A DNA stretch of 64,000 nt from Alphaproteobacteria bacterium (lineage in GTDB: Bacteria; Pseudomonadota; Alphaproteobacteria; Rickettsiales; UBA8987). The stretch is taken from assembly GCA_031426355.1 (NCBI GenBank), contig JANPLD010000068.1, positions 71,477 through 135,476 on the forward strand, in the 5' to 3' direction. Below the pieces are notes generated by a model that was not told where the DNA came from, did not search any database, and saw only the letters and a list, made by a program, of their open reading frames with translations. A program made the translations under genes and the position numbers. Shown piece after piece: positions 12,657 to 51,055 of this stretch (its first letter is position 1; the number at the start of each line of letters is the position of its first letter).

Positions 12657-12683
12657 AATTACAGAATATTGGATTATTTGTTA

Positions 12684-33124: not shown

Positions 33125-33129
33125 TTAAT

Positions 33130-33188
33130 AGTTTGAAGATTGAAGTTTGAAGAATTTTCTTCCAACTTCCAACTTTAAACTTCCAACT
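33130..33188 (+). repeat. Intercistronic repeat/hairpin element B (TTGAAG / CTTCCAA repeats) between dnaB and the epimerase gene
   Basis: AGTTTGAAGATTGAAGTTTGAAGAA-TTTT-CTTCCAACTTCCAACTTTAAACTTCCAACT. GAAGTTTGAAG (33142..33152) pairs 10/11 with CTTCCAACTTC (33159..33169), with a further imperfect extension. The architecture (TAG stop, tandem-repeat arm, TTTTCT, inverted tandem-repeat arm, ATG) matches elements A and C. Confidence 0.55.
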
Positions 33189-33191
33189 ATA

Positions 33192-34157: not shown

Positions 34158-35286
34158 GGGTTTTAGCTCTTACTGCTAATTTTAAAATTACTGCTCCCCA
34201 GAGACCGGAAAGAACTGAACCGGCGATAACGCCAATTTTTACTTCTTCCTGCAAGGTTGAGCTTGTAAACGCAAGCATGCCTATAAATAAACTCATAGTG
34301 AAACCAACGCCTGCTATTACCGCAACACCATAAATATCTAACCAGCTGGTGCTAGCTGGTTTTGGAGCTATTTTCAGTTTTACCGCTGCTAACGTAAATA
34401 GTAATATTCCGATTTGCTTTCCGAAAAATAAACCAAGTGTAATTCCAATAGTTAAAGGGCTGAACATTTCATCCATTGTTAAACCACCGAAACTTACCCC
34501 GGCGCTTACCAATGCAAAAAGTGGCAATATAAAAAAAGCGACATAGGGATGGAATTTTTTTATTAGTGAATCAAGGGTTTTACCTGAGGGTACGAAAAAA
34601 CCTAATATCACTCCAGCGACAGTTGTATGTATTCCGGAATAATGAAAACTTCCCCATAATATTATGGCGAGTAAAATATGACCTGCGTTAAAAATTTTTT
34701 TCTTATGGAGGAAATATAAAACCCCGACAGTTAAACCTGCAATAAAAAATGGCAGTGGCTGCACACCGCTACTGTAAAAAAATGCGATGATTATTATAGC
34801 GGCGATATCATCATAGATCGCTATCGCAAGCAGAAATATTTTTGCTGACTGCGGAACTGATTTGCCAACTATAGTTAACACACATAATGCAAACGCTATA
34901 TCTGTTGCAGTTGGAATGGCCCAGCCACGGCTATTTTCAGGAGATACGTGGTTTATAATAAGAAATATAATTGCAGGCGTTATTATTCCACCAAAAGCAG
35001 CAATAAGCGGTAATATCTTCTGGCCTTTTTTTGATAAATGACCATCTACCATTTCTTTTTTTAGCTCCATACCAACCACAAAAAAGAAGATCACCATGAG
35101 GATATCTTTTACAAAATCCTGTAGCGAAAATTCAAACTGGCTGAATGAGATATGATAAGAAATTGCAGCTTTATAAAAATCAGATAGAGGAGAATTTGCG
35201 AGCAACATTGCTATTGCTGCAAATACTATCATTACAATTCCACCTGCTGATTCGGTCTGGATGAATTTTTTTAAAAATATTCTCAT
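34147..35286 (-). CDS. nhaA: Na+/H+ antiporter NhaA
   Basis: MRIFLKKFIQTESAGGIVMIVFAAIAMLLANSPL matches the NhaA N-terminus, and the AIYDDIAAIIIIAFFY motif is present. Start 35286 is preferred over the track's 35385, which would overlap rlmH. Confidence 0.9.
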   Translation of the reverse strand: MRIFLKKFIQTESAGGIVMIVFAAIAMLLANSPLSDFYKAAISYHISFSQFEFSLQDFVKDILMVIFFFVVGMELKKEMVDGHLSKKGQKILPLIAAFGGIITPAIIFLIINHVSPENSRGWAIPTATDIAFALCVLTIVGKSVPQSAKIFLLAIAIYDDIAAIIIIAFFYSSGVQPLPFFIAGLTVGVLYFLHKKKIFNAGHILLAIILWGSFHYSGIHTTVAGVILGFFVPSGKTLDSLIKKFHPYVAFFILPLFALVSAGVSFGGLTMDEMFSPLTIGITLGLFFGKQIGILLFTLAAVKLKIAPKPASTSWLDIYGVAVIAGVGFTMSLFIGMLAFTSSTLQEEVKIGVIAGSVLSGLWGAVILKLAVRAKTLNA

Positions 35287-35361
35287 TTGTATATTTCTGG
35301 TAAAACCTGTTTGTGCATTTATAGTGTTTATAGCATTCAATAAAATTAAACCAGCGAAGCT

Positions 35362-35787
35362 GTGAAAGTTAAAATCTATTATCATTCGTTAGATAAAAAA
35401 GAAGTGGTAAATGAACTGATAGAAGTTTACCTGAAACGCTGTCCATGGAAATTCGAGTTTGAGAATTATCAGGGGAAGAAATACCAGAACGCCATAATTG
35501 AGGAAGTTAAAGGCAAATATTTCACTATTGCACTGACTGAGAATGGTAAAGAATATACCAGTGAAGCATTCACAAAATATATGCAAGGGCTTTCAGCAAA
35601 TCATGGCAGCAGGATAGCATTTGTTTTGGGACCCGCAGAGGGCTTTGATAAAAATGACATCCTTAAGGCCAATGCAACACTTTCGCTAGGAAAAATGACA
35701 TATCCGCATAATTTGGCTCGGTTATTGCTTGTTGAACAAATGTACCGTAGCTGGACTATTTTAGAGAATAAGCCCTATCACAAATAG
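35362..35787 (+). CDS. rlmH: 23S rRNA (pseudouridine1915-N3)-methyltransferase RlmH
   Basis: 141 aa with a GTG start. IAFVLGPAEGF...LSLGKMTYPHNLARLLLVEQMYRSWTI is the SPOUT/RlmH C-terminal signature. Confidence 0.88.
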   Translation: MKVKIYYHSLDKKEVVNELIEVYLKRCPWKFEFENYQGKKYQNAIIEEVKGKYFTIALTENGKEYTSEAFTKYMQGLSANHGSRIAFVLGPAEGFDKNDILKANATLSLGKMTYPHNLARLLLVEQMYRSWTILENKPYHK

Positions 35788-35852
35788 GTTTTGATTGATA
35801 GCAGGCCAATGATAGAGAATAATCCAGCTAAGGTAAGGGCGTAATAGCCTGA

Positions 35853-35882
35853 TTAAGGCCAGGCTTAACAACCTGGCCTTAA
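35853..35882. other. Perfect 11-bp-stem GC-rich hairpin/palindrome upstream of flgB
   Basis: TTAAGGCCAGG (35853..35863), an 8-nt loop, then CCTGGCCTTAA (35872..35882). No U-tract on either strand. It lies 22 nt upstream of the flgB ATG. Confidence 0.5.
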
Positions 35883-35903
35883 GATATAATCCCAAGTCAT
35901 TTT

Positions 35904-36293
35904 ATGGACTTAAGTAAAATTACATCCTTTGCGCTTCTTGAAGAGAAGATGAAATATAATGCCGACAGGCAGCAGGTTATCGCTGAGAATTTCGCTAATG
36001 TGGATACGCCGGGATATAAGAGGAAAGATATTGAGAAGCCTGATTTTGCTAATATTTTTAATGAAAAGCTTTCAGCACTTACTCCGGCGCAGACAAATTC
36101 GAAGCATATTGGCGCGGTTGATGATGATTCGATAAATGGCAGAAAGGTCATAACTTCCGAAGATAAAGTTCAACTTGATATGGAAGCGTTGGAAATGATG
36201 CAGAACAGCACATCTTATTCAGAGGCTAACGCAACTTATAAAAAGATGCTTTCCCTTGTAAGGGTTGCAATAGAAGGAAGCGGAGCGAGATAA
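35904..36293 (+). CDS. flgB: Flagellar basal-body rod protein FlgB
   Basis: …RQQVIAENFANVDTPGYKRKDI… is the rod-protein N-terminal motif. First gene of a flgB-flgC-fliE cluster. Confidence 0.85.
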   Translation: MDLSKITSFALLEEKMKYNADRQQVIAENFANVDTPGYKRKDIEKPDFANIFNEKLSALTPAQTNSKHIGAVDDDSINGRKVITSEDKVQLDMEALEMMQNSTSYSEANATYKKMLSLVRVAIEGSGAR

Positions 36294-36763
36294 TGAAAGA
36301 ACTTGTTTACATATTTTTATTTATAATTTGCGTGCCTTCGGTTTCAGAGGCGGCGGGCGGTCTTAAAAAAGCCCTGACAAGTTCGGCCTCTGCAATGAAA
36401 GCGCAGTCTGAAAGGATACGTGTCATCACTGAGAATATCGCCAACTCTGATACAACAGGTCTTACTGAAACTGAGGAGCCTTATAGAAGGAAGACCGTAT
36501 ATTTTGAGAATGTCAAAGATGATGAGACCGGCGCAAATGTAGTAAAAGTAAAAAAGATTGCCCGAGATGATAGTGAGTTCAAACTTATTTACCGCCCTGA
36601 TCACCCTGCGGCTAACGCAGATGGGTATGTTCGCTTCCCAAATGTTGACAGGAACCTTGAAAACATTGATATTCGTGAAGCGCAAAGAAGTTACGAAGCT
36701 AATGTTACAGCAATTGAAGTAACTAAACAGATGATGGAAAGATCACTAGATTTAATGAGATAA
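36293..36763 (+). CDS. flgC: Flagellar basal-body rod protein FlgC (with unusual hydrophobic N-terminal extension)
   Basis: SASAMKAQSERIRVITENIANSDTTG and the C-terminal DGYVRFPNVDRNLENIDIREAQRSYEANVTAIEVTKQMMERSLDL are FlgC signatures. There is a 1-nt TAATG overlap with flgB. Confidence 0.88.
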   Translation: MKELVYIFLFIICVPSVSEAAGGLKKALTSSASAMKAQSERIRVITENIANSDTTGLTETEEPYRRKTVYFENVKDDETGANVVKVKKIARDDSEFKLIYRPDHPAANADGYVRFPNVDRNLENIDIREAQRSYEANVTAIEVTKQMMERSLDLMR

Positions 36764-37090
36764 ATGACAAAAAGAAAAGTTATGACCAGTTTAAATATGT
36801 TAGATGCAGTTTCTGCCTATAATAAAACTTCCTCTCTTGACGGGAAAGGTTTTGGCGTATCACAGGCACCTTCCAGCGATTTTACCTCTCTGGTGGAAAA
36901 AGCACTTAGTGATACTAAAGATAAGTTAGATATTGCGGAAACCTCAACAGCTGGCTCAGTAAAAGGTGATATCAGCCTTGAAGACCTTGCAATAGCAGTT
37001 GCCAATGCGGAAGTAAGCCTCAAGACCTTAGTTTCCATTCGTGATAAACTTGTCAGCGCATTGCAGGATATTCTAAGGATGCCTATTTAG
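36764..37090 (+). CDS. fliE: Flagellar hook-basal body complex protein FliE
   Basis: 108 aa. The C-terminal …AIAVANAEVSLKTLVSIRDKLVSALQDILRMPI matches the FliE C-terminus (…vRnK…AYqeImrMqv). Position after flgC. Confidence 0.8.
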   Translation: MTKRKVMTSLNMLDAVSAYNKTSSLDGKGFGVSQAPSSDFTSLVEKALSDTKDKLDIAETSTAGSVKGDISLEDLAIAVANAEVSLKTLVSIRDKLVSALQDILRMPI

Positions 37091-37127
37091 GTTGATGGTT
37101 GATAGTTCATAGTTTATTGAAAATATC

Positions 37128-38126
37128 ATGACTATCAGAAAATACAAAATCGGCACAAGGAAAAGTAAACTTGCACTCGCGCAGACTGAAGAAGTTATTG
37201 CGGAGATAAAAAAGTCGATCCCTGATTTTGTATATGAGATAGTTTCCATAAATACTAAAGGTGATCAGGTTCATCACAAGCCTTTGCGTGAATTATTTGA
37301 AGGTGGTAAAAGCGCTTTTACCAGTGAATTACAGCAGGCATTGAAAGAAAAGGAAATTGATATTGCTGTGCATTCCATGAAAGATGTTGCAGGTAATGTC
37401 AGAGAAGAAACCCTTACTTTTGGGGCGTTCCTTAAAAGAAGGTCAGCCAGCGATGTTTTTATCAGCCGGAATTTTATACAGAATATAGAATCATTACCGC
37501 AGGGTTTTATAGTTGGTACAGTTTCTCTCCGCCGCAAAGCAGCTTTGCTTAAACTGAATAATAAAGTGAAGGTAAGGAATCTGCGTGGAAGCATCCAGAC
37601 GAGAATTGCAAAACTTCGCCATGAATTTATTTGGGATGATCACCCACCCATTCTATATGACGGAATAGTAATGGCAGAGGCGGCACTTGAACGTAGTGAT
37701 AAAAACCTGACGAAAGATTTATACATCCTAAAAATATCCGAGAGCAAAATGGTTCCCGCGGCGTGCCAAGGAACTATAGGTGTTGAGTGCAGGAAAGATG
37801 ATCATGAAACTTACAGGTTATTAAGAAAAATAAACCACGTGGAAACAGAGGAAGTAAGTTTATCTGAAAGGGATTTTTTATATATGATCGGCGGAAATTG
37901 CCATACTTCAGTTGGCGTTTATTGTTATGAGAAAGATAAAGGTTTTGAAATGAGCGCAGAAATATCTGATGAAAAAGGTAAAATAATTCTTGATGAAATA
38001 TTGCAATGCGAAATGCCTGATATATCCAGCCTTCCAAAAAAACTTGCTGCTAAAATAATAGAAAAAGCTCAAGATAAGCTTGGTGAAAATTATAAAGAGA
38101 TATTAAATATAGAACCAAGAATATAA
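37128..38126 (+). CDS. hemC: Hydroxymethylbilane synthase (porphobilinogen deaminase)
   Basis: IGTRKSKLALAQTEEV...INTKGD...FTSELQQALKEKEIDIAVHSMKDV and the cofactor-binding region PAACQGTIGVE. Confidence 0.93.
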   Translation: MTIRKYKIGTRKSKLALAQTEEVIAEIKKSIPDFVYEIVSINTKGDQVHHKPLRELFEGGKSAFTSELQQALKEKEIDIAVHSMKDVAGNVREETLTFGAFLKRRSASDVFISRNFIQNIESLPQGFIVGTVSLRRKAALLKLNNKVKVRNLRGSIQTRIAKLRHEFIWDDHPPILYDGIVMAEAALERSDKNLTKDLYILKISESKMVPAACQGTIGVECRKDDHETYRLLRKINHVETEEVSLSERDFLYMIGGNCHTSVGVYCYEKDKGFEMSAEISDEKGKIILDEILQCEMPDISSLPKKLAAKIIEKAQDKLGENYKEILNIEPRI

Positions 38127-38153
38127 AACCGGACTGAGAACGGAAATAAAAAA

Positions 38154-38169
38154 GGAGCTAAAAAGCTCC
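38154..38169. terminator. Bidirectional intrinsic terminator between hemC (+) and rpmJ (-)
   Basis: GGAGCT-AAAA-AGCTCC. An A-run precedes it (a U-run for the minus-strand rpmJ transcript) and T-rich CTTTATAAAATCTTT follows it (for hemC). Confidence 0.65.
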
Positions 38170-38207
38170 CTTTATAAAATCTTTAAGAAATAAAATTACG
38201 GCCCGGA

Positions 38208-38333
38208 TTAACCTTGGCGAGCTTTCATTTTAGGGTTTTTCTTATTGATAACATAAATCCTGCCTTTTCTACGAACTACTCTGCAGTTCTTATCTCTTGC
38301 TTTAGCAGATTTGAGTGAGCTTACAACTTTCAT
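38208..38333 (-). CDS. rpmJ: 50S ribosomal protein L36
   Basis: Not in the ORF track (41 aa). The minus strand reads ATG AAA GTT GTA AGC TCA CTC AAA ..., giving [41 protein letters not shown]. This is the alphaproteobacterial-type L36 sequence. Confidence 0.9.
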
Positions 38334-38439
38334 AACCTTGAGTTTTATTAGTTTTGAAGGGGCTTTCTATACAAAACTATCACTGTAGTCAACCAAATAC
38401 CCTGCAAATTCACAATTATTTATATGTTTCAAAAGGTTA

Positions 38440-40821
38440 TCATAATAAAACCTCTGTAATTGCCACCTCCCCCCGCCCGACTTTATCAGACATCTGGTAT
38501 ATTCTGGCGGTAAAGTTAGTTGCTAGAGAACCAAAGTCAGAACTCTGCATACCTTCAGTATAATTAAAACTTGGAGAGGTTATTTTCTCAGTCCTTTTTA
38601 AAGTAGAAGCATCGAAAATGTCTATTTCATATTCTTCCTTAGTTTCAAAAACAGGGATCTCTACACTTGAAGAAAAAGAGATATTACCGCGTGATCTTCT
38701 CAGCCATTGTATATTGATGTCATCATCCATTTCCCTTTCGGCAGAAATATGGACAGGTGAATATGGCTTTAATGAATTTCCAGAAAAGTTAATTTCTTTT
38801 GCGGTAACATCATCTGCACTTTTACCAAAGGTTACAGCTTTTATCCAGATAGTTTGGCCGATCTGTGAAACAGGCATCTCTATCTTTAAAACATTCTCAT
38901 CAAGCAGGATGAACCTGCTGCCTGCAGGATGAGTTTCACCTGCGTAATTTTCTGTACCCTGACGGCCGCGATATAAGTGGCTAAGCGTATATTTATTTAA
39001 TTCTGTCTGGTTGATATTTTTAAACTGAAAATTTTCATTTCCTATCAAAGCTAAATTTCCAAATGATTGTAGATTATCTTCTGTTAGTGATTCTAAAGTT
39101 CCACCGATCAAATTTATATTCAGCTGATTAATTTTATCAATAACAGGGGAGCTGAATTGTAACAGTTCAGTTTCAATAACTCCCATTGTTGCAGGGGAAA
39201 CAATATCAGTTATTTTCTGAAAACCTTCTGTTGCGGAAATATTGCTTACATATATTGCGCAACCATTCCAGTTAGAAGAAGTACCGCAGACAGCCAGATG
39301 CAGATATGCTTTATCTATTGAAGTTTCATTTGGCAAATGATGTGTATCAATTATCTCAAAATAAGTATCGGAGATAGGTTCCAGATTTTCACTGTTATAA
39401 TCAGTCGTAAGTTCCTCATTGGCGGAAGAATAAAAATCATTTTCAAATCTTATTGCAGATATTTTTATCTTGCCTTGCTGCGTGAGTGAGGAAATTATTT
39501 TCAGCTTATAGGTCTCATCATTTTTAATGATGTTCACTATATCGCCTGCTTCAATATATAAATATTCAGATGGCAGTGAGAATTCTATCTTCTGAGTTAT
39601 TGCTTCCTCTTCAAGAAGTAAAGTTTGTGCTATTTTTTCAGCATATGATCTGTTCAATAATAATGGCAGATTAATCTCAATACCGGATGAATTATTTTTA
39701 TCTTCGCGCGAGATGTCAAAATTTCCGACAAGGTAATTATTATTTTCCGATATATAATTAAGGCTGAGGTTTGAAGTAATATTCAGGCTAGATGCATTTT
39801 CAAACAGCATGGTCTCATTATTCTTTTCGAAAATTAATCTGCTAAAATCTATATTTATTTCTTCAGTGTTTTCACTCTGCCTTGGGAAGAATTTCACTTT
39901 ATCACTTTCAACAAAATCAAAAAAGTAACCTGATTGTAATGTTCGCAGGGCTTCTAAAGCTGTGATAGCACCCGAGAGATTATATCCGCTGACAAGTTTA
40001 TTAACATTATTTATTTCTGGAGTTTCAATACCGGCTTTTTTGCAGAGGTCAGAAATTATATTCTTAAGTTCAGCTACCCCTAATTTTCCATTTATCCAAT
40101 GGCCGCGGCTCCATAAATTTCCATCACCCCAGACATTTTTCATATCAGGGTAAAATGGATAGGACCTCGCATCATAAGCCCAAATAAATTTCTGCTCCAC
40201 CATTTCAGAATTCTGCCATTTTGCCAAGGTTCCCTGAAGCGCCGTTCTTTGCGCCAGAAAATCAATATATCCTTTGGATAAATATGGCAGGTTGCCATCA
40301 ACTGAATCAGGATTATAAAAAACATTTGGCTGATTGGCGCAGCCATCAACTGAAGGAAAACCAAACTCAGTGAACCATATTTTTTTACTTTGTGGTACAA
40401 ACTCTGTTTGTTCTGAATCAGGATTTGTATGAGTATTATTCCACCAATATTCAATATTTTTCCAAGCATCTTGAGGTGTTAAATCTGCTTTTACAGTGCG
40501 TTCTTCATCAGTGTAATACCAGTCATAACCTTCACCATTTTCCCAGCCGTCTATAATTTCTTGCTTATCGTATATTCCATTCTGCTCCCTGTCAGTGAGT
40601 GGGAAATATGCATCGATACCGATGAAATCTATATTGTCTGATGCCCATAGAGGATCCATATTATACCAGCCATTTGTGGAATGGTATTCACTCCAATCCG
40701 CTGCGTAACCTATTTTGGTTTCAGACCCCATTATTGTTTTAACTTCCTCTACAAGGGCTATCAGTTCGTCCACTGCCGAGAAACTATCATCAGCATCCTG
40801 AATTTGTGTCAGGCCTTTCAT
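38440..40821 (-). CDS. GTA host-specificity/tail-fibre protein (RcGTA g15-like), C-terminal fragment; the frame is actually open up to the frameshift at 40910..40915
   Basis: The 793-aa ORF begins inside the conserved …VDAFIIGSEMKGLTQI…TKIGYAADWSEY… TIM-barrel-like region of g15-type proteins. Upstream in the same frame, FFTKTNGYNNFILHYADLVKDKVDAFIIGSE is also readable. Confidence 0.8.
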   Translation of the reverse strand: MKGLTQIQDADDSFSAVDELIALVEEVKTIMGSETKIGYAADWSEYHSTNGWYNMDPLWASDNIDFIGIDAYFPLTDREQNGIYDKQEIIDGWENGEGYDWYYTDEERTVKADLTPQDAWKNIEYWWNNTHTNPDSEQTEFVPQSKKIWFTEFGFPSVDGCANQPNVFYNPDSVDGNLPYLSKGYIDFLAQRTALQGTLAKWQNSEMVEQKFIWAYDARSYPFYPDMKNVWGDGNLWSRGHWINGKLGVAELKNIISDLCKKAGIETPEINNVNKLVSGYNLSGAITALEALRTLQSGYFFDFVESDKVKFFPRQSENTEEINIDFSRLIFEKNNETMLFENASSLNITSNLSLNYISENNNYLVGNFDISREDKNNSSGIEINLPLLLNRSYAEKIAQTLLLEEEAITQKIEFSLPSEYLYIEAGDIVNIIKNDETYKLKIISSLTQQGKIKISAIRFENDFYSSANEELTTDYNSENLEPISDTYFEIIDTHHLPNETSIDKAYLHLAVCGTSSNWNGCAIYVSNISATEGFQKITDIVSPATMGVIETELLQFSSPVIDKINQLNINLIGGTLESLTEDNLQSFGNLALIGNENFQFKNINQTELNKYTLSHLYRGRQGTENYAGETHPAGSRFILLDENVLKIEMPVSQIGQTIWIKAVTFGKSADDVTAKEINFSGNSLKPYSPVHISAEREMDDDINIQWLRRSRGNISFSSSVEIPVFETKEEYEIDIFDASTLKRTEKITSPSFNYTEGMQSSDFGSLATNFTARIYQMSDKVGRGEVAITEVLL

Positions 40822-40856
40822 TTCTGAGCCGATGATAAATGCATCTACCTTATCTT

Positions 40857-42146
40857 TTACCAGATCAGCATAATGAAGAATAAAATTATTATACCCGTTG
40901 GTTTTAGTGAAAAAATATGAACTTCAGATGAATCGCAGGTTATATATCCGCGCCATGGCTTATCTATAATATCCATAAAAATCATCGGATAGAATTTTAC
41001 TTTTAGTCCTCTGTTTGTTGCTTCTTCTATAAATCTTAAAATACTTTCATCACTTGGTGTGCCGCCATAAATAGGGCGTTCATCTGCGTAAGTTACCAGC
41101 GCTGCAGTGTCGCGGTTATATCCAGCAACATGCCATTCAGTGGGAAAAGTTTTCGTCTGGGTTTTATATTCTACGCGTGGCGCAACAGTGCAAACATTTG
41201 CATCAAGTGAATTGCCAAACCAGCAGCAAACCAGACTTACATATTCAATATTTGGGAAATTATTTTGTAAATTATCCAAGGCAACTAATGCATCTGCTTT
41301 ACCGCTGGCATTATTCTGATTGATAAATTTTTCTTCACCGGTCTGGTGCCAGATACCTAAAATTTCCACCCCATCTTTTTTACTATGGGTTAAAGTATCA
41401 TAAACAAATTCGCCGCTTCCCGGTATAATATTCACTGCGGTAACATTATTTTCTAGATTGTTTTCATCTCCTGATATTTTTAAATTGCGGATTATCTCAA
41501 AAGTGAAATTCGGTATTCTGCCCCTAAATTCAGTTAGTTCAAAATCTTCAAAAACTATATAGGCAAGGCCACGATATGCAGGGGTTTTATTTTCACCTTC
41601 ATAAGATTCTATTACAGGGTCTGGAAGTTGGGTTTCATCCCCTTTATAGATACTGTAAGAAGCGCAGTAATCATTGGGATTGATCAGATTTGAATCTGCC
41701 CAGACACGGTCGACATAGTCAATTTCACCTTCGCATAATGCAATGGCGATATTTACGAAATAACGGAAATTAGTTTCGGTTTTCCTTTCTACTTTCGCGC
41801 TGCTGCCTTTACCGCCCTGATTGACAGGTGCTCTTTCTTCGACGATCCTGACATTGGTTGACCAGACGATATTACCGGCTATCCTTGTTTTGCCGTAAAT
41901 TATAGGGATCGCGTCACCATAAGAAGATTTCTGTATTGAGAAATCAGTTAGTTTTTTTCCTCGGATTATATTCTTTTCATTCTCACCGAAAAGGTTTGAA
42001 TCAATTGAATTGCCGAGCCTTGTGGCTCCGGCATTAAGCCCTTCTTTAACCTGACCCTCAACAATATTACCGAATACCGGGATCTGCGAAAGACCAAATG
42101 ATTCTACAAAACTATTTGATGCACTTGTTAATACTGTTGTTGTCAT
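40857..42146 (-). CDS. GTA host-specificity/tail-fibre protein (RcGTA g15-like), N-terminal fragment
   Basis: …YGKTRIAGNIVW…FRYFVNIAIALCEGEIDYVDRVWADSNLI…YKGDETQLPDPVIESYEG…PAYRGLAYIVFEDFELTEFRGRIPNFTFEI… matches the conserved N-terminus of alphaproteobacterial GTA g15 proteins. The last 30 or so residues are out-of-frame nonsense. Confidence 0.8.
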   Translation of the reverse strand: MTTTVLTSASNSFVESFGLSQIPVFGNIVEGQVKEGLNAGATRLGNSIDSNLFGENEKNIIRGKKLTDFSIQKSSYGDAIPIIYGKTRIAGNIVWSTNVRIVEERAPVNQGGKGSSAKVERKTETNFRYFVNIAIALCEGEIDYVDRVWADSNLINPNDYCASYSIYKGDETQLPDPVIESYEGENKTPAYRGLAYIVFEDFELTEFRGRIPNFTFEIIRNLKISGDENNLENNVTAVNIIPGSGEFVYDTLTHSKKDGVEILGIWHQTGEEKFINQNNASGKADALVALDNLQNNFPNIEYVSLVCCWFGNSLDANVCTVAPRVEYKTQTKTFPTEWHVAGYNRDTAALVTYADERPIYGGTPSDESILRFIEEATNRGLKVKFYPMIFMDIIDKPWRGYITCDSSEVHIFSLKPTGIIILFFIMLIW

Positions 42147-42158
42147 AACTTCATTAAT

Positions 42159-42584
42159 TTAGTTTTTGATTCTATAAATTTTTACTATCTTTGATCTCCA
42201 CACATCATTAAGGCGATGTTTCACCGCTTTGCCAATCTGGCTGTAACAGTGAATGAGTGCTAGGTTTTCATTATTATATTTCGTGATGAAGCCAGTATGC
42301 TGAGGGAATTTTCCGAACTTCATCAGAAATATATCACCTTCTTGCATCTTATTTTTTTCAATTGAAAGAAGCGAAGCTTCCATTTTTTCCTGCAGTAAAA
42401 ATGTTGAGGGGATACGGGAATATCCTGCTTCATCATTTTGCGTGAGGTCAACTTCGCAATTTTTCAGGACAGTTAGTACAAACCCTATGCAATCAACACC
42501 TATAGCAATATTCCTGCCTTGATGGACAAAGGGAACTCCGATCAGTTTTTCAGCTTCTGAGATTATTTTATTTTGTAAATCCAT
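42159..42584 (-). CDS. NlpC/P60-family cell-wall peptidase (RcGTA g14-like)
   Basis: 141 aa. …GVPFVHQGRNIAIGVDCIGFVL… provides the catalytic Cys context, followed by …HTGFI…LIHCY. Position between the g13- and g15-like genes. Confidence 0.8.
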   Translation of the reverse strand: MDLQNKIISEAEKLIGVPFVHQGRNIAIGVDCIGFVLTVLKNCEVDLTQNDEAGYSRIPSTFLLQEKMEASLLSIEKNKMQEGDIFLMKFGKFPQHTGFITKYNNENLALIHCYSQIGKAVKHRLNDVWRSKIVKIYRIKN

Positions 42585-42586
42585 AT

Positions 42587-43414
42587 CTATACTTTTAATA
42601 TCCTGTCTGTTCCCGGGATATGAGGTTCCCCACGAAAATTAATTATGTTGTCGAATTTGGAGATACAGGTTTGTGAATTTTTATCGCAGCCTACAGAGAC
42701 CTGATATTCATCACCTGTTTCAATATCTTTTATAAGAGAAGTAAGAAGTTTGAATTTGCCTTCTGTGAAATTTGCGATCTCTCTTATAGAACCAGAGTTC
42801 GCGCCGCTTAAGAATGTAATCACCCCTTTTGAGAAATAATTTTTCTCTTCAGTTCGCGCGGTATCAATGAATTCCATTTTATTTATTGTGAATGTAACTG
42901 CTCCTGAGAATGTATGGTCAGCAATATTTATTCCGCATTTGCTATCGCCAAATTTTGCTCTGCAATTAGGTGAGAAATTCTGTGATATTCTGTTTTTAAG
43001 TAATGAAGAATATCCTGATATCTCAATAAATAATTTATCGTCATCATATCTTATTTTTGAAATAAAACCTTTTTTGAGAATTAATTTCCCATCTTCAGGA
43101 GATTCATAATTCAGTAAAAATATTTCTATATCGGCAGAATCTAATTTACTTGATTCAACTTCAGTTTTTGAGATGATATCATCTTCAATAACACTTAAGA
43201 TACTTTCTTTTTTATTAACTGAAAACCCTGAATAATCAGCAAAGATATCAGATGACAGATAAGGTTTATAAATATTGCCGTCATATTGGAATTCCTTATC
43301 GAAACTGGTTAAGGCGATCACTGATCCATCCTTACAGGTAATAAGAATGAATTTTGCTAAGGTTGTTACTTCTTTTGCAAGATGCCCTTTTAAATTTTCG
43401 GAAATGTTTTTCAT
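42587..43414 (-). CDS. DUF2163 / BR0599-type phage protein (RcGTA g13-like hub protein)
   Basis: 275 aa. Contains …TLAKFILITCKDGSVIALTSFDKEFQYDGNIYKP… and the C-terminal CDKNSQTCISKFDNIINFRGEPHIPG motif typical of this family. Confidence 0.78.
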   Translation of the reverse strand: MKNISENLKGHLAKEVTTLAKFILITCKDGSVIALTSFDKEFQYDGNIYKPYLSSDIFADYSGFSVNKKESILSVIEDDIISKTEVESSKLDSADIEIFLLNYESPEDGKLILKKGFISKIRYDDDKLFIEISGYSSLLKNRISQNFSPNCRAKFGDSKCGINIADHTFSGAVTFTINKMEFIDTARTEEKNYFSKGVITFLSGANSGSIREIANFTEGKFKLLTSLIKDIETGDEYQVSVGCDKNSQTCISKFDNIINFRGEPHIPGTDRILKV

Positions 43415-44013
43415 ATTTTTACCTCTATCAATTCAATTTTTGACATTGAAGCTTTGGAGAAATTTTCTGTTGAGTATGAAAGGATATCTGAGTTGAAACG
43501 CGCCGGAACATCGAATTCGAAATCTGCTTTTACCACCACAGAATTTGCAGGAGGACTTGAAAAAGTAATAACTCCATTATTATTCCCGAGGGAAAATCCC
43601 GAAGCCTGCTTAATATTATCAAGATAGACCTATATGCTCTGCGGCACCGGTTTCGTAATTTTTCTCTCAATCTCATAAATCTCATCTCCGTATTTTTTAA
43701 TAAGCTGGAATTGTGTTTTTAAATTATTGCCTGTTCCGAGTATTTGGCCTTTCGCCTGAAAATCTGCCCAGTCTTTGAAGCGGAAGCCATAGGCCATACC
43801 CCGGCGTGCGATAAAGAAATCGCGGATCTTTTCTGCCTGAGCGGTAGAAATATTTTTGAAATCGATCTCATATTTCGCGCGAGGGATTGAATTATTTATA
43901 TTCCGCTTCTCGTGGCCGCTCGTCATTAAATTAACGGAAGTTGAGAATTCCTGACCACCTTGCGCTTTAAAAGAAATATCTGCGGGGAACCTTGCTTCGT
44001 GAAAATCTGTCAT
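43411..44013 (-). pseudogene. DUF2460 protein (RcGTA g12-like) interrupted by an in-frame TAG at 43630..43632
   Basis: The track ORF 43630..44013 (FHEARFPADISF…GGQEF…SGHEKRN…RRGMAYGFRFKDWADF…KPVPQSI*) stops at TAG. The same frame continues for 72 codons (VYLDN…GVITFSSPPANSVVVKADFEFDVPARFNSDIL…) to a TGA that overlaps the g13-like ATG. Together this is about 200 aa, the normal length of the family. Confidence 0.8.
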
Positions 44014-44109
44014 TGGGAATCTCCTATAAAATTATTCTGCGATAGAGATTATAAACTTCCTTTGATGCCGGATTTATATCGGCCTTGCCCCTATTCTCAA
44101 AACGATAGG

Positions 44110-44577
44110 CTATCTGGTAAAAAGCGCCGTTTTGATGATCTGTGGAACATTATCTGCTTCCTCACCATATCCGGCAAAGTAATCTATGTAGATAAACTTT
44201 GCAGAAGGAAGAACATCAAAAAAGAGGAAATATTTTGCCGGAGAAAGATAATAATTCGAAGCAGAAAATGCTGTTTCATCACCATTTTTATCTATCAATT
44301 TTACCGAGTCGATAGAACTTACCGGACCCATCGGCAAATCAACTTCCATTTCAGTTGAACTGCAATATGCAAGGCGCCATTTCTGTGTGATGAGAGAAGC
44401 CTTCATATATTTTTCAGCTTCGATACGAGCTGATTTTATAAGATCCTCAATAGTACTATTTTCTGCATCGCCGCTGATGCGTAAGAATTCCTTTACTTCA
44501 TCTGCTGTTACCGGTTCAATTTCCGGTTCAGTTAATTTTATCAATTCCGGTTTCCTGCTTTTAAAAATTCCGAACAT
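44110..44577 (-). CDS. gp6-type head-tail connector/adaptor (RcGTA g6-like), C-terminus displaced by a frameshift
   Basis: …PVTADEVKEFLRISGDAENSTIEDLIKSARIEAEKYMKASLITQKW… is the gp6-like N-terminal signature. The expected C-terminal …YRFENRGKADINPASKEVYNLYRRIIL* is readable in the -1 frame down to TAG 44024..44026. Confidence 0.75.
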   Translation of the reverse strand: MFGIFKSRKPELIKLTEPEIEPVTADEVKEFLRISGDAENSTIEDLIKSARIEAEKYMKASLITQKWRLAYCSSTEMEVDLPMGPVSSIDSVKLIDKNGDETAFSASNYYLSPAKYFLFFDVLPSAKFIYIDYFAGYGEEADNVPQIIKTALFTR

Positions 44578-44657
44578 GATGCTCCTTTATTTGTATGTTT
44601 AAAATCCTTCTATTTTTAAGATTATGTGCGAAAAAATATGTGCGGAAGGGTGAAAAT

Positions 44658-44694
44658 TCATGTGCCACACCATGAATAAGCATGGCACATGAAG
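44658..44694 (-). terminator. Hairpin/terminator immediately downstream of the capsid gene
   Basis: TTCATGTGCC (44658..44667) pairs with GGCACATGAA (44685..44694), with an inner CCATG/CATGG extension. On the minus strand it is followed by TTTTCACCC. Confidence 0.55.
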
Positions 44695-44701
44695 TAAAAA
44701 A

Positions 44702-45904
44702 CTAACTAGCTGCCAGTTTTAATAATTTGATCGCTTCAAAATTAACCACACCACCACCTACACGTTTAGTCGTGTAGAATTTCACGAATGGTTTTTCAGT
44801 GTATGGATCGCGGAGGATGCGGATACCTGTCCTATCAACGATCTGATATGCACGTTTAAAATCTGCAACGGCAACTGAAAGTGAGTTGGTTGCGGGAACC
44901 GGCATATCGGAAGCCTTAACCACTGGAACGCCGAGTAATGTATCAGGCGTTCCTGCTGTTAGGCCGGGCTGCCAGAGATATTGATTCGTAGTTGCTTCTT
45001 TCAGTAAACGAACTGCCTGAACTGTTGCTCTGTTCATCATGAAGGCGTTATTTGCATATTCATCTTTTAAAGCATAATAGAGTTTGATGAGTGAATCGGA
45101 AGTTACCGCGCCTGCTGAAAGTGAGCTGATCTGTTCAATCTGCCCGGCACCGGTTCCTGCGGTATAGGCAAGTATACCTTTTGGTTTGCCCGAACCATTA
45201 CCTGAAACAAAGGCAGTGTTTTCTTTGCGTGAGAAAACTTCCACCAGTTTTTCAGTAAGCCAGCTTTCAATATCAATTGACGAATCATCAATTAATTTTT
45301 GCGTTGCCTTAGGCTGTGCCACAAGCTCATATGCAGTGATAGAAAGCTTGCCGATCTGCGGTGTATCGGAATCAGAAACGGCAGCGGATTCTGAAGATGC
45401 CCAGTCTGCTCCAGCTTCGTCGCTATCTTCTATTATTTCGAAAACGTCAGATGAAAGTTGCGTAACATTTGCAACCTGCCTCATTGGTGAGCTTTCATAG
45501 ATGATGCGTGCAAGCTGCGCGCTCATTTGCGGTGTAACCAGATATCCGCCGTCTGCATCAGTGCCAACTGAAAGGGCTTTCTTCTCGAGGAAAGAAAGAT
45601 CACCTTCAACGCCTTTACGAACGTAATTGATGAAAGCTGCTTTATGTTCGCCTGCAATATTTGATGAAACATCGCTTTTATATTCACCACCAAGTGAGGG
45701 GCGGTTCAGAACTGTCTCAACACCGTCAAGACGGTTCTTGAATTCGTCTATTACATTATTTAATTTGTTAATATGATTTGTTGTTAAAGAATCCGCAGAG
45801 CCTTTTTTCTCTATCTCCTGCAGCCTCCTTTCATTAAGTTTTTTGAAATCATCCCATGCGGAGCCGAGTTCATCAACTTTTCTTGTTATTGTAGAAATAC
45901 TCAT
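44702..45904 (-). CDS. HK97-family major capsid protein (RcGTA g5-like)
   Basis: 400 aa. An N-terminal coiled delta-like region (…VDELGSAWDDFKKLNERRLQEIEKKG…) is followed by the HK97-fold body (…GGYLVTPQMS…, …NQYLWQPGLTAGTPDTLLGVPV…). Confidence 0.9.
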   Translation of the reverse strand: MSISTITRKVDELGSAWDDFKKLNERRLQEIEKKGSADSLTTNHINKLNNVIDEFKNRLDGVETVLNRPSLGGEYKSDVSSNIAGEHKAAFINYVRKGVEGDLSFLEKKALSVGTDADGGYLVTPQMSAQLARIIYESSPMRQVANVTQLSSDVFEIIEDSDEAGADWASSESAAVSDSDTPQIGKLSITAYELVAQPKATQKLIDDSSIDIESWLTEKLVEVFSRKENTAFVSGNGSGKPKGILAYTAGTGAGQIEQISSLSAGAVTSDSLIKLYYALKDEYANNAFMMNRATVQAVRLLKEATTNQYLWQPGLTAGTPDTLLGVPVVKASDMPVPATNSLSVAVADFKRAYQIVDRTGIRILRDPYTEKPFVKFYTTKRVGGGVVNFEAIKLLKLAAS

Positions 45905-45912
45905 AATTTTCC

Positions 45913-46422
45913 TTATTTTAAAATGTTAATTGTCTTGTCCAGTAAGGAGAGAAGCTCTGCTTCAGGCTCATCTGATTTTACACTGAGGATCTTTGCGGAA
46001 TCATTGGCCGGGAAAGTGACCAGACTTATTTCGAATAATTCTGCTTTTTTGATTACGCGAACTTCGGTTTCATCATCAATTTCAAAATCAGTGACCCTGA
46101 AACCAATGCTTAAGCCTTTCAGCGCACCGCTTTTGAGGAGTGCGTAAGCTTCGCGAGCGCGTTCGATCTCAAGTAGAAGCTGGCCTTCAACGTACAGTCC
46201 GTTGTCATCTTCTTCTATGTGAGTAAAAATCCCGATCGGTTCATCTGCGCGGTGTTGCCAGAGTAATTTTATTTCCCCGGCATTTTTGGTCAGATCTGAA
46301 AAAGCACCTTCCAGAATTATATCATCGTGATTATCTATAACGCCGAATACGCTGGCGTAACCTGAGAAAAAACCCTTTTTATTAAGAGATTTTATCTCAA
46401 GGGAATAATTATAATTTTGCAT
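45913..46422 (-). CDS. HK97-family prohead protease (RcGTA g4-like)
   Basis: 169 aa. GYASVFGVIDNHDDIILEGAF…LWQHR…PIG…LSIGF…EISLVTFPAN matches the S78/U35 prohead protease pattern. Confidence 0.88.
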   Translation of the reverse strand: MQNYNYSLEIKSLNKKGFFSGYASVFGVIDNHDDIILEGAFSDLTKNAGEIKLLWQHRADEPIGIFTHIEEDDNGLYVEGQLLLEIERAREAYALLKSGALKGLSIGFRVTDFEIDDETEVRVIKKAELFEISLVTFPANDSAKILSVKSDEPEAELLSLLDKTINILK

Positions 46423-46556
46423 AAGATAATTTATTAATGATTAAATCTAAAGTAAGACAATGCTTCACCTTACATTCTTAAGGTTATGGATGAAAAATAG
46501 AGTGCGGAAGGGAGCTGAATAAGATTTTGATTAAAATCTTTATTGTAAGAGGTGAA

Positions 46557-46621: not shown

Positions 46622-47641
46622 ATGGATAAAAAGAAAGCATTAGAAACAGCACTTAGCCAGATCGAAAAAGCATATGGCAAAGGCTCGATAATGAAGCTTG
46701 GTGACAAGGAACATGTAAGTGTTGAAGCTATTTCAACAGGTTCTCTTGGTTTAGATATGGCTTTAGGAATTGGCGGAATACCGCGTGGTAGGGTAATCGA
46801 GATATTTGGCCCGGAAAGTTCTGGTAAAACTACGCTTACACTTCACATTATTGCAGAAGCGCAGAAAAAAGGCGGAGCTTGTGCATTTATAGATGCTGAG
46901 CATGCACTTGATCCTGTTTATGCAGAAAAACTTGGTATTAAAATTGATGATCTTATTATTTCCCAACCGGATACTGGTGAACAAGCATTAGAGATAGTAG
47001 ATACTTTAGTTCGCTCAGGTGCAGTTGATGTTGTAGTAATCGATTCCGTTGCGGCACTTGTACCAAAAGCTGAGATCGAAGGTGAAATGGGTGATGCACA
47101 AATGGGTGCTCAAGCAAGGCTAATGAGTCAAGCGCTTCGTAAACTTACAGGCTCAATATCAAAAACAAACTGTACGGTTATTTTCATTAACCAAATCCGT
47201 CAGAAAATTGGCGTTATGTTTGGTAACCCTGAAACTACCACAGGTGGTAATGCCCTTAAATTCTATGCTTCTGTGCGTTTGGATATACGTAGGACTGGTG
47301 CTATCAAAGATAAAGACGTAAATATCGGGAACTTGACAAGAGCAAAGGTTGTTAAGAACAAAGTTTCCCCTCCTTTCAAACAGGCTGATTTTGAAATAAT
47401 CTACGGCGAAGGTATTTCCCGTATCGGTGAGATAATTGATATGGGCGCAAATGCCAATATCATTGAAAAAGCTGGTTCATGGTTTGCTTATAATGGCACA
47501 AGGATAGGCCAAGGTAAGGAAAATGCTAAGCAATATCTCAAAGATAATCCGAAAATAGCTAAGGAAATTGAAGAGAAGATAAGGGCGCAAGCTGCTTCAC
47601 TTACCACTACCATAGCAAATTCGGAAGAGGATGCAGCTTAG
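46622..47641 (+). CDS. recA: Recombinase RecA
   Basis: [35 protein letters not shown] (Walker A), [22 protein letters not shown] and [37 protein letters not shown]. Confidence 0.98.
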
Positions 47642-47710
47642 TTTGATTATTTGCCAACTATTTCTTTTTGTGTATAAAACATCTTACAAACTGAATGTTA
47701 GCAAGCAATA

Positions 47711-50359
47711 ATGCCGCCAAAAACACTTTCATCAATCCGCACTGCATTTCTGGATTTTTTCAAATCCAAGGGGCATTTTATTGCGCCTTCATCGCCGCTT
47801 ATCCCGCATAGTGACCCGACTTTGATGTTCACTAATGCAGGTATGGTGCAGTTTAAGAATGTATTTGCCGGGCGTGAGGAAATTAAAGATAAGCAAGGCA
47901 AAGTTACACATAGAGTTGCAACATCACAAAAATGTGTTCGTGCCGGTGGAAAACATAATGACCTTGAGAATGTAGGTTATACTACGCGTCACCATACATT
48001 TTTTGAAATGCTAGGTAATTTTAGTTTTGGAGATTATTTTAAAGAAGATGCGATCTCTTATGCATGGGAATTCCTGACAAAAACATTGGCACTTCCTAAA
48101 GATAAATTATGTGTAACTGTTTATCATACGGATGATGAGGCTTTTAATCTTTGGAAGAAAATCGCTAACTTACCTGATGAAAAAATAATACGCATAGCTT
48201 CTGATGATAATTTCTGGGCAATGGCTGATACCGGTCCGTGCGGGCCGTGCAGTGAGATATTCTTTGATCACGGCCCACAAGTTGCAGGCGGCCCGCCAGG
48301 TTCACCTGAACAGGATGGTGACAGGTTCGTTGAGATATGGAACCTTGTATTTATGCAATACGAGAAGTTAGAGAACGGTGAGCGTACAAACCTCCCAAAA
48401 CCATGTATTGATACTGGTATGGGCTTGGAGAGATTGACTACGGTTCTGCAAGGTGTTCACGACAATTATCAAACGGATATTTTTGTAAGATTAATTGAAG
48501 CAAGTAAAAATATTTCAGGGCAGAATAAGCCTGAATTTGATAATTCCCACAGGATAATCTCTGACCATTTACGTTCCACATGCTTCCTGATCGCCGATGG
48601 AGTACTGCCTTCAAATGAAGGTCGAGGATATGTTCTCCGCCGTATAATGCGACGCGCCATGAGGCACTGCCATCGCTTAAGCCCTAATAAAATTATGATG
48701 CACCGTTTAGTTCCAGCATTACTTGCTGAAATGAGCGAAGCGTATCCTGAGCTTGAACGCGCAAGAGCCTTAATTATACAAACGATTGAAAATGAGGAAG
48801 AAAGATTCAGGGAAACTTTGGGCAATGGTTTAAAGGTCCTTGAAAATGAATCGAAGCATTTAAAGAATAAAACCCTTTCAGGCGAAATTGCTTTCAAACT
48901 TTATGATACTTATGGGTTTCCAATAGATCTTACGCAGGATATCCTCAAAGAAAGAGGGATAAAAGTTGATGAAGCTGGTTTTAACGCAGCATTAGGAAAA
49001 CAGAAAGAAAAAGCCCGGGCTAATTGGACAGGAAGTGGTGAAGCTGCGACTGAAACATTATGGCTAGAACTTGCAAAGGAACTGGAGGAAACAGAATTCT
49101 TAGGATATACTAATACAAACTCATCAGGTGATGTAATTGCCATTATTGCGAGTGGTGCAAAACAGAATAAATTATCAGAAGGTGAAGGCGCGATAATCAC
49201 CAACCAGACACCTTTCTATGCGGAATCTGGTGGTCAGGCTGGCGATAGGGGTTTCATCAAAAACGATAAAGGTGTTTTTGAAGTTCATGATACTAAAAAA
49301 TTCAGCGGTTCATTATTTGTACATTTCGGAAAAATGATTTCCGGTGAAATCAAAATGCATGACATTGCCAAACTTGAAGTTAATGAGAATCGCAGGGCAA
49401 GGGTACGCAAGAACCATTCTGCTACCCATATACTTCATGCGGTGTTGAGGAAAAACCTTGGCGACCATGTAACACAAAAAGGCTCACTGGTTGAGGAAGA
49501 TTATCTACGTTTTGATTTTTCAAACCCTAAAGCTGTTACTGATGAAGAGATCAGAAAGATAGAATTTGAAGTTAACAAAATAATTTCTCAAAATACTTTG
49601 GTGAATACCAAGATCATGAATATTGACCAGGCCTTAGAATCAGGAGCTATGGCATTATTCGGCGAGAAATATTCTGATGAGGTTCGCGTACTTTCTATGG
49701 GTGATAGTTACTCAGTAGAGCTTTGCGGCGGAATACATGTTGAACGCACCGGAGATATCGGAACCTTCCGTATCACTAAGGAGTCCGGCGTTGCATCAGG
49801 TGTCAGAAGGATAGAAGCTGTAACCGACCAGAAAGCATTGGAATTTGTTTTCAGCAAGGAAGATAAATTAAACAATATAATGGAGATAACCAAATCTTCA
49901 GAAAATGATGTTGTTGAGAAATTGGAAAAGCTTCTTCTTGAGAGAAAAGAGCTGGAAAAGCAGGTTTCTGAACTTAAGAAGAAAGCTGCTCTTGGCGGAA
50001 ATTCAGGCTCTAGTAATAATAATGAAGAAGTGGAAGTAATAAATGGAACGAAGTTCCTTGCTAAAAAACTTGATGGCGTTGATGCGAAAGACCTGCGCGG
50101 TATTGTTGACGAAATAAAAACCAAACACACTTCATGTGTAGTATTTTTGGTTGCGGAGAATAAAGGCAAGGTTTCAGTTCTGGCGGGTGTTACCAATGAC
50201 CTTACAAATAAAATATCTGCCGTTGATATAGTTAAGAAATCCGTTGAGATAATGGGCGGCAAAGGCGGTGGCGGGCGCCCGGATTTTGCCCAAGGCGGCG
50301 CTCCTGATAGCAATAATTACGAGAAAGCTATTGTAGAGATTAAAAAACTAATTATATAA
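47711..50359 (+). CDS. alaS: Alanine--tRNA ligase
   Basis: 882 aa. Contains FTNAGMVQFKNVF, RHHTFFEMLGNFSFGDYFK, the editing-domain HSATHILH, and CGGIHV. Confidence 0.97.
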   Translation: MPPKTLSSIRTAFLDFFKSKGHFIAPSSPLIPHSDPTLMFTNAGMVQFKNVFAGREEIKDKQGKVTHRVATSQKCVRAGGKHNDLENVGYTTRHHTFFEMLGNFSFGDYFKEDAISYAWEFLTKTLALPKDKLCVTVYHTDDEAFNLWKKIANLPDEKIIRIASDDNFWAMADTGPCGPCSEIFFDHGPQVAGGPPGSPEQDGDRFVEIWNLVFMQYEKLENGERTNLPKPCIDTGMGLERLTTVLQGVHDNYQTDIFVRLIEASKNISGQNKPEFDNSHRIISDHLRSTCFLIADGVLPSNEGRGYVLRRIMRRAMRHCHRLSPNKIMMHRLVPALLAEMSEAYPELERARALIIQTIENEEERFRETLGNGLKVLENESKHLKNKTLSGEIAFKLYDTYGFPIDLTQDILKERGIKVDEAGFNAALGKQKEKARANWTGSGEAATETLWLELAKELEETEFLGYTNTNSSGDVIAIIASGAKQNKLSEGEGAIITNQTPFYAESGGQAGDRGFIKNDKGVFEVHDTKKFSGSLFVHFGKMISGEIKMHDIAKLEVNENRRARVRKNHSATHILHAVLRKNLGDHVTQKGSLVEEDYLRFDFSNPKAVTDEEIRKIEFEVNKIISQNTLVNTKIMNIDQALESGAMALFGEKYSDEVRVLSMGDSYSVELCGGIHVERTGDIGTFRITKESGVASGVRRIEAVTDQKALEFVFSKEDKLNNIMEITKSSENDVVEKLEKLLLERKELEKQVSELKKKAALGGNSGSSNNNEEVEVINGTKFLAKKLDGVDAKDLRGIVDEIKTKHTSCVVFLVAENKGKVSVLAGVTNDLTNKISAVDIVKKSVEIMGGKGGGGRPDFAQGGAPDSNNYEKAIVEIKKLII

Positions 50360-50912: not shown

Positions 50913-51055
50913 TTAGGGTATTATTTAACCATCTGAAAACAATAGCAATTTTTTATCACGTCATTACAGATTTGATTTTCTACCTCATAATCCCTTCCGG
51001 GCGTTATTTTTCATAAATATCTTGGTTAGTAGGTGATTCAACTAACAGGGCTAAT

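Follow-up and report, generated by a model that had tools for sequence, protein, structure and literature searches.

An RcGTA-type locus with adjoining head and baseplate genes in a Rickettsiales-like alphaproteobacterium

Results

Gene content of the locus

We analyzed a 64,000-nucleotide stretch of an alphaproteobacterial genome (GenBank assembly GCA_031426355.1, contig JANPLD010000068.1, positions 71,477–135,476), referred to here as the window, which carries seven phage-derived genes on its minus strand between hemC and recA. As shown in Table 1, these genes are homologous to structural genes of the gene transfer agent (GTA) of Rhodobacter capsulatus (RcGTA) and read, in order, g4, g5, g6, g12, g13, g14, and g15. 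All seven families were confirmed with Pfam and NCBIfam profiles, in agreement with the families and the RcGTA-like order given in a preliminary description of this DNA. The profiles matched are GTA-type and not generic phage families alone (GTA_megatron, the Rcc01695 family, TIGR02218, GTA_TIM, and Rcc01698_C), so that the best matches fall, as that description had supposed, to GTA families and not to those of ordinary temperate phages. Within g15, Pfam recognizes the GTA_TIM, Phage-tail_3, and Rcc01698_C domains; the match of g14 to TIGR02219 scores under that profile's curated cut-off. The surrounding DNA (window G+C content ∼38%) encodes housekeeping functions, including nuoG-J, gyrB, recF, ppdK, glyS, ileS, dnaB, recA, alaS, flgBC, and hemC.

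An eighth homolog, the portal gene g3, lies on the plus strand and was absent from the gene list of the preliminary description. It is separated from g4 by three open reading frames (ORFs), namely recA, alaS, and one uncharacterized ORF, and its product is 50% identical to the portal of a related locus (L084, see below). With the portal included, the window holds eight RcGTA homologs within 15 ORFs; this is below the at least nine homologs in one merged region that define a “large cluster” in the available text of Shakya et al. (2017), and the locus is a “small cluster” by the same definition. The homologous families and the like relative order of g4, g5, g6, and g12–g15 are common to this locus and RcGTA. 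However, RcGTA is one contiguous cluster of ∼15 kb, with g1–g3 upstream and g7–g11 between g6 and g12, whereas in the window the portal is detached and no terminase lies nearby.

Table 1. Positions of the GTA-type genes, promoter-like motifs, and hairpins in the window.
Feature	Position	Strand	Description
g3, portal, HK97 family	51056–52258	+	400 aa, intact; TIGR01537, 227.6 bits, profile positions 4–338 of 343
g4, prohead protease	45913–46422	-	169 aa, intact; Peptidase_S78 (PF04586), TIGR01543
g5, HK97-type major capsid protein	44702–45904	-	400 aa, intact; TIGR01554, 359 bits
g6, head-tail adaptor	44024–44577	-	TIGR02215; read frame 44110–44577, shifted tail to 44024
g12, distal tail protein	43411–44013	-	DUF2460, TIGR02217 “Rcc01695 family”; disrupted
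g13, baseplate hub	42587–43414	-	275 aa, intact; PF09931 and PF09356, TIGR02218 “phage/gene transfer agent baseplate hub”
g14, NlpC/P60 cell-wall peptidase	42159–42584	-	141 aa, intact; PF00877
g15, megatron (baseplate multidomain protein)	38440–42146	-	NF048004 “GTA_megatron”, 419 and 633 bits over two fragments
Promoter-like motif, CCCTTCCG-N6-ATTTTTC-N4-ATA	50992–51019	+	starts 64 nt upstream of the portal start codon
Promoter-like motif, CCCTTCCG-N6-ATTTTTC-N4-ATA	46485–46512	-	starts 90 nt upstream of g4
Promoter-like motif, CCCTTCCG-N6-TTTTTTC-N4-ATA	44623–44650	-	starts 73 nt upstream of g6
Stem-loop directly behind the capsid stop codon	44657–44693	-	-22.6 kcal/mol, z = -5.5
Terminator-like hairpin with T-run	38150–38173	-	downstream of g15

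The g6–g12 junction and its relatives

The head and baseplate genes meet at a compact junction. In the restored frame of g6 (see below), its TAG stop codon at 44024–44026 is overlapped by an AGGAG and is followed, after a spacer of 10 nt, by the g12 ATG at 44013, which confirms what had been noted earlier. We searched for relatives as homologs of the capsid and hub proteins and then read their contigs (4–21 kb in each of four clade genomes). The order g4-g5-g6-g12-g13-g14-g15, with a g6–g12 spacer of 9–11 nt and all genes intact, recurs in four other distinct genomes: GCA_964445765.1 (L001/L002) and GCA_033762595.1 (L004, named “Rickettsiales bacterium” at NCBI), both of which keep recA beside g4; the closest relative, a Logan contig (L003) with DNA 86–88% identical to the window; and GCA_035909535.1 (L089), whose g13 is 40% identical to that of the window. 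The nearest relatives carry the NCBI name “Rickettsiales bacterium.” An independent assembly of the same organism (L087) is identical to the window over this stretch. The junction is thus an operon-preserving join and not an assembly gap, as the preliminary description had held; its reading of the deletion as a trait of this genome does not stand, since the same join in four other genomes makes it ancestral to the clade.

The synteny comparison proposed in that description also revealed a conserved setting. L089 keeps the wider neighborhood of portal, recA, alaS, the cluster, fliE-flgC-flgB, and rlmH, and the recA/alaS/flg neighborhood common to L001, L004, and L089 indicates a stable chromosomal position. 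The conserved neighborhood in L089 and the recA-g4 adjacency in L001 and L004 argue for an old event followed by vertical inheritance, and the loss of g7–g11 is, as judged from these comparisons, a single event in the ancestor of the clade. The recA-alaS block between portal and g4 is inverted in the window (46622–50359) with respect to L089 (2039–6954). The uncharacterized ORF between alaS and the portal (50352–50855, minus strand) encodes 167 aa rich in Gln and Asn and has no match in Pfam, NCBIfam, or PHROGs; no counterpart is annotated at the equivalent place in L089.

We looked for the missing genes throughout the window. Searches of the 64 kb by tblastn with the g1-like, terL, g7, g8, and g9 sequences and the unknown tail ORFs of relatives gave no likeness to g1, g2, or g7–g11, and Pfam, NCBIfam, and PHROGs scans of the other large window ORFs found none of these genes; PHROGs searches of the uncharacterized window ORFs returned no phage-like match. 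Neither g7–g11 nor a terminase was annotated or matched by tblastn in the 4–21 kb of the four other clade genomes. Family scans of the window ORFs also found no integrase, repressor, replication, lysis, or terminase gene, consistent with the earlier statement that terminase, integrase, repressor, and lysis genes are absent from the window. In a terminase search seeded from a related locus (L085), the best 120 matches were filled by other lineages and included no entry from the source contig. Within the window, therefore, the complete tail of a functional GTA, with the stopper, terminator, tube, chaperones, and tape measure encoded by g7–g11, is not represented.

Other relatives differ in how much of the cluster they hold. 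A “Rickettsiaceae bacterium” (L088) has g6-g7-g8-g9 followed by long uncharacterized ORFs and then g12–g15, and L084 has a g1-like gene, terL, portal, g4, g5, g6, g7, and g8, followed by three large uncharacterized ORFs and g12. L085 runs from a g1-like gene to g7, with g14 directly after g7 (12004–12779); L086 has g4–g6 only (9295–11874); and L005 has a capsid singleton next to ftsA (10001–11209), with CCCTTCCG still upstream. Because L084, L085, and L088 retain more tail genes, we take the polarity to run from a complete cluster to piecemeal loss. The three ORFs of L084 (16109–21048) are unannotated and Ala/Gly-rich (664, 584, and 331 aa) and lie between g8 and g12, at the place of the tube and tape-measure genes; the 331-aa ORF shows a faint PHROG likeness to tape-measure and tail-lysin proteins (E about 1e-3), the sole match among the uncharacterized ORFs of the relatives. 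In L003, a 1.35-kb insertion between g5 and g6 (1786–3235) contains a lipoprotein-like ORF of 197 aa with no family match, which is preceded by a duplicate of the GTA promoter-like motif described below.

Lesions in g6, g12, and g15

Comparison of the cluster with intact orthologs identified three lesions in the window. A 1-nt deletion near 44116–44118 truncates g6, which as assembled encodes 155 aa and stops at 44110–44112, while its final 30 codons now lie in a different frame that ends with the TAG at the junction; the orthologs in L001, L003, L004, and L089 are intact, with 179–185 aa. The g12 gene contains an in-frame TAG at 43630–43632, codon 128 of about 200, where L003 has TCT, and its orthologs are intact at 199–201 aa. 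Finally, g15 has lost 1 nt in a T6 run (40910–40915), which splits it into 429 and 793 aa; a T7 run would restore EVHIFFTKTNGY, the L001 counterpart reads DVTDFFTKTKGY, and the orthologs are intact at 1231–1234 aa. Five genes of the set (g3, g4, g5, g13, and g14) are intact. With a frameshift in g6, a nonsense codon in g12, and a frameshift in g15, the locus does not have the full set of intact ORFs expected of a functional GTA.

All three lesions are present in the independent Logan assembly of SRR20217183 (L087), which is 100% identical to the window over 13,327 bp (32587–45913). They lie within 8 kb, whereas none was found in ∼50 kb of other coding sequence (chance ∼(8/58)^3 = ∼0.003); about 25 housekeeping genes of the window align with their profiles over the full length, and what look like gaps contain small genes that are intact (such as panD and relBE). 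Compared with its sister, the window branch has not gathered an excess of amino-acid changes, and the codon substitution pattern before and after each lesion is that of selected genes. Because they recur in an independent assembly, are confined to one operon, and are accompanied by no excess of amino-acid change, the three lesions look real, rather than assembly artefacts of a metagenome-assembled genome (MAG), and recent. We also considered programmed frameshifting or readthrough and rejected it: the orthologs are plain ORFs without interruption, the TAG in g12 stands in place of a sense codon, and a T6 run is short for efficient slippage, although low-level slippage at the g15 T-run could still take place.

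Purifying selection and phage origin

We estimated the ratio of nonsynonymous to synonymous substitution rates (dN/dS), a check called for in the preliminary description, by the Nei-Gojobori method for the two informative pairs. Between the window and L003 (dS 0.53–0.86), dN/dS was 0.054 for g4, 0.070 for g5, 0.048 for g6, and 0.094 for g12; between L001 and L004, it was 0.12 for g4, 0.089 for g5, 0.105 for g6, 0.23 for g12, and 0.20 for g13, compared to 0.027 for recA. These values (0.05–0.23) indicate that the structural genes, those of the tail side included, are maintained by purifying selection in the clade. The proposal that the cluster is a decaying relic applies in part to this genome, with its three lesions in the g6–g15 operon, and fails for the clade, in which the genes are intact and under purifying selection.

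The capsid protein g5 has thousands of chromosomal homologs that are 60–94% identical, while identities to phage records do not exceed 42%. Given that the best phage capsid reaches 41–42%, as opposed to 60–94% for the chromosomal homologs, the locus is by this sequence comparison not a recent prophage.

A promoter-like motif and hairpins

The octamer CCCTTCCG occurs at exactly three sites in the 64 kb, all in sense orientation and starting 64–90 nt upstream of g3, g4, or g6 (Table 1). Its extended form, CCCTTCCG-N6-WTTTTTC, likewise has three exact matches in the 64 kb, whereas shuffled sequences gave ∼0.5 matches even with two mismatches allowed. In seven related loci, too, the motif or its CCCTTCC core is found upstream of GTA genes, namely of g6 and the inserted ORF in L003, of g4 in L001 and L004, of the lone capsid gene in L005, of the first cluster gene in L084 and L085, and of the portal in L084 and L089. 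We infer that the motif is a shared promoter or operator. Such a reading fits the GTA promoter of Caulobacter, which has a degenerate -35 element and depends on the activators GafY and GafZ, and that of Rhodobacter, where GafA binds the RcGTA promoter across the -10 and -35 elements. A fourth match, with two mismatches, lies in the 5′ part of a glycosyltransferase ORF (23540–23560, minus strand) and is probably due to chance. A sigma-70 consensus scan, with no more sites than in shuffled sequences, speaks neither for nor against a promoter role of the motif. A scan of a genome-contig collection with CCCTTCCGNNNNNNWTTTTTCNNNNATA returned 78 stretches, all from unrelated taxa and without GTA genes in their vicinity; evidently neither the window genome nor its close relatives are part of that collection.

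A strong stem-loop follows the capsid stop codon, and hairpins of unrelated sequence are found at the equivalent place in L001, L003, L004, and L089. The element is likely an attenuator or an mRNA-stabilizing structure between the g4-g5 and g6–g15 units; since unrelated sequences hold the same place in each relative, the arrangement suggests attenuation or transcript stabilization that keeps capsid output high. The terminator-like hairpin downstream of g15 may mark the end of the operon and serve the convergent hemC as well.

Other features of the window

A VirD4-type coupling protein of type IV secretion (443 aa) is encoded at 13166–14497 on the minus strand; its C-terminus looks short (Pfam profile positions 43–374 of 468), and a GNAT acetyltransferase gene overlaps its stop codon. 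Between ppdK and glyS lies a RelB/RelE-like toxin-antitoxin pair (17374–17845, plus strand; 72 and 89 aa), as judged from the sequences.

Discussion

The pattern of retained and missing genes places this locus with the reduced GTA sets of Rickettsiales. The available text of George et al. (2022, GBE, PMC9254644), a survey of Rickettsiales and Holosporaceae genomes, reports a conserved capsid/portal set together with distal-tail, hub, and megatron genes across Rickettsiales, with other tail parts undetected; several GTA clusters per genome, in Rickettsiaceae; dN/dS below 1, with tail genes less constrained than head genes; and pseudogenization of tail genes followed by their loss as a common pattern. 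It leaves the function open between gene transfer and a repurposed structure, and cites earlier reports (Lang & Beatty 2007; Shakya et al. 2017; Christensen & Serbus 2020). The preliminary description was therefore mistaken in regarding a head-plus-baseplate set without tube or tape measure as undescribed. By its component pattern, its dispersed loci, and its Rickettsiales-like host, the locus belongs to this reduced type. As far as the available text of that survey describes them, the sets agree in retaining portal, protease, capsid, adaptor, distal tail, hub, peptidase, and megatron, in the undetected tube, tape measure, and chaperones, in the spread of genes over several loci outside any prophage, and in dN/dS below 1 with weaker constraint on the tail than on the head and occasional tail pseudogenes. 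What our analysis adds to that text is the exact g6–g12 operon join, common to a clade of uncultured, flagellated “Rickettsiales bacterium” MAGs, the shared promoter-like motif before each unit, and three fresh lesions in this genome.

Two known end points help to frame the structure that such a set could form. In the RcGTA particle, the tail builds up from the adaptor through stopper and terminator to five tube discs and then the distal tail protein, around a channel occupied by a trimer of the tape-measure protein (Bardy et al. 2020, PMC7296036). The window set, in contrast, has none of the rings that separate adaptor and distal tail protein in RcGTA, nor the tape measure that plugs the channel. 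The same structural work found a single fold common to the stopper, terminator, tube, and distal tail proteins (Bardy et al. 2020, PMC7296036), and by analogy g12 might conceivably dock straight onto g6. At the other end stand the head-only remnants of Holosporaceae and Neorickettsia (in the available text of George et al. 2022, PMC9254644), which likewise combine intact portal, protease, and capsid genes with a lost tail function, a loss that in the window is presumed from the lesions. Those remnants are without g12–g15 altogether, whereas in the window g12–g15 are present and just disrupted.

We consider it probable that the locus is a vertically inherited, reduced RcGTA-type set typical of Rickettsiales-like alphaproteobacteria, with an ancestral loss of g7–g11 and recent decay of the tail operon. 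The starting state would have been a complete, chromosomally fixed RcGTA-type cluster. In the ancestor of the clade, one operon-preserving deletion would have removed g7–g11 (stopper, terminator, tube, chaperones, and tape measure) and fused the 3′ end of g6 with the g12 ribosome-binding site and start, and a rearrangement around recA-alaS would have parted the portal from g4. This would leave three transcription units, g3, g4-g5, and g6-g12-g13-g14-g15, each behind a putative CCCTTCCG-N6-WTTTTTC-N4-ATA promoter, with the post-capsid hairpin probably setting the capsid-to-tail ratio. The genes of the clade most likely still build a co-regulated capsid and neck/baseplate assembly, which could have either a very short, tubeless tail, with the distal-tail ring docked on the adaptor, or tail parts encoded at other places in the genome. 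The g6–g15 operon of the sampled organism appears to have been hit recently by three inactivating lesions. Because that operon is broken three times while g3, g4, and g5 are intact, the organism is probably on its way to the head-only condition that other endosymbiont lineages have reached.

A bolder version of this account, which we regard as unlikely, is that the clade builds a tubeless, podovirus-like GTA in which a g12 hexamer on the g6 dodecamer replaces the stopper, the hub, megatron, and peptidase form the whole tail, and all units belong to one CCCTTCCG-N6-WTTTTTC regulon; a dedicated activator or sigma factor recognizing this element may then drive the dispersed genes. If true, this would be a natural transition from a siphovirus to a stub tail in a domesticated particle, and the element would be the first cis-regulatory code for endosymbiont GTAs.

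Several points weigh against the reading of a reduced, co-regulated set in decay. The window covers 64 kb, whereas the contig is at least 177 kb long, and the terminase and g7–g11 may lie elsewhere in the genome. According to the available text of George et al. (2022, PMC9254644), no particles were seen by transmission electron microscopy in related endosymbionts. Both frameshifts lie in or beside T-runs, which leaves a small residual chance of a sequencing-chemistry artefact common to both assemblies. Lastly, a scan with the sigma-70 consensus gave no more sites than shuffled sequences, and the promoter role of the motif is read from the DNA sequence only.

The first of these points leads to a different reconstruction that is compatible with the layout described here, namely that g7–g11 and the terminase reside elsewhere in the chromosome under the same regulon, and that the clade builds a complete siphovirus-like GTA from dispersed loci. 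GTA genes are clearly scattered in this group: the window portal stands apart from the other genes, the capsid of L005 is a singleton and yet a terminase lies on the same 2.1-Mb contig, and genomes of Rickettsiaceae hold several clusters each according to George et al. (2022, PMC9254644). Loci so far apart could be coordinated through a shared motif. However, the window and the contigs of the four clade genomes yielded no homolog of g7–g11 or of a terminase, the missing components were undetected genome-wide in most Rickettsiales in the available text of the same survey, and relatives that keep g7 or g8 have them directly after g6, so that one deletion is simpler than several relocations. On balance we find this reconstruction doubtful. 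A repurposing of the retained genes is improbable in our judgment. They would form, for example, head-only compartments, or a surface or host-interaction device built from the megatron, hub, and peptidase, with no transfer of DNA. Purifying selection does persist despite the lost tube and tape measure, this option was raised for endosymbionts in the available text of George et al. (2022, PMC9254644), and head and baseplate modules vary independently among the relatives (g4–g6 only in L086, head genes with g14 in L085, and the capsid alone in L005). Yet the cluster has no linked genes for cargo, effectors, or targeting, and a motif shared by the portal, protease, capsid, and neck/baseplate units is more readily explained by one particle than by separate uses.

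Sequencing or consensus errors would account for the three lesions if the g6–g15 operon were intact and functional as in the relatives. Each of the two frameshifts results from the loss of a single base within or adjacent to a T5/T6 run, the codon pattern on either side of each lesion is still that of a selected gene, and the window branch carries no excess of amino-acid change, all of which would fit such errors. We nevertheless hold errors to be quite improbable: the Logan assembly reproduces the lesions in 13.3 kb of identical sequence, the change from TCT in L003 to TAG in g12 requires base substitutions and not an indel, and the confinement of three lesions to 8 kb, with none in the ∼50 kb of other coding sequence, has a chance of ∼0.003. 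Similarly, three disrupted genes of phage origin might be seen as the decaying remnant of an ordinary temperate prophage integrated near recA. This is largely refuted, and we give it very little credence, in view of the GTA-specific families found as best profile matches (GTA_megatron, Rcc01695 family), the absence of integrase, repressor, replication, and lysis genes from the window, a neighborhood conserved across genomes with saturated synonymous sites, the purifying selection on the genes, and a nearest phage capsid just 41–42% identical.

The layout itself was already known, and the reduced, probably decaying set described here adds one more lineage to the head-plus-baseplate GTA remnants of Rickettsiales. 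The loss of g7–g11 can now be placed as a single clean join common to a clade, with intermediate states in relatives that keep g7-g8 or the full g7–g9 tail block. The shared promoter-like element makes the regulon testable and could help to find missing or uncharacterized partners in complete genomes. Furthermore, the window appears to capture the decay of the tail module at its very first step, with the head genes untouched, and so supports the path proposed to lead from full GTAs to head-only remnants.

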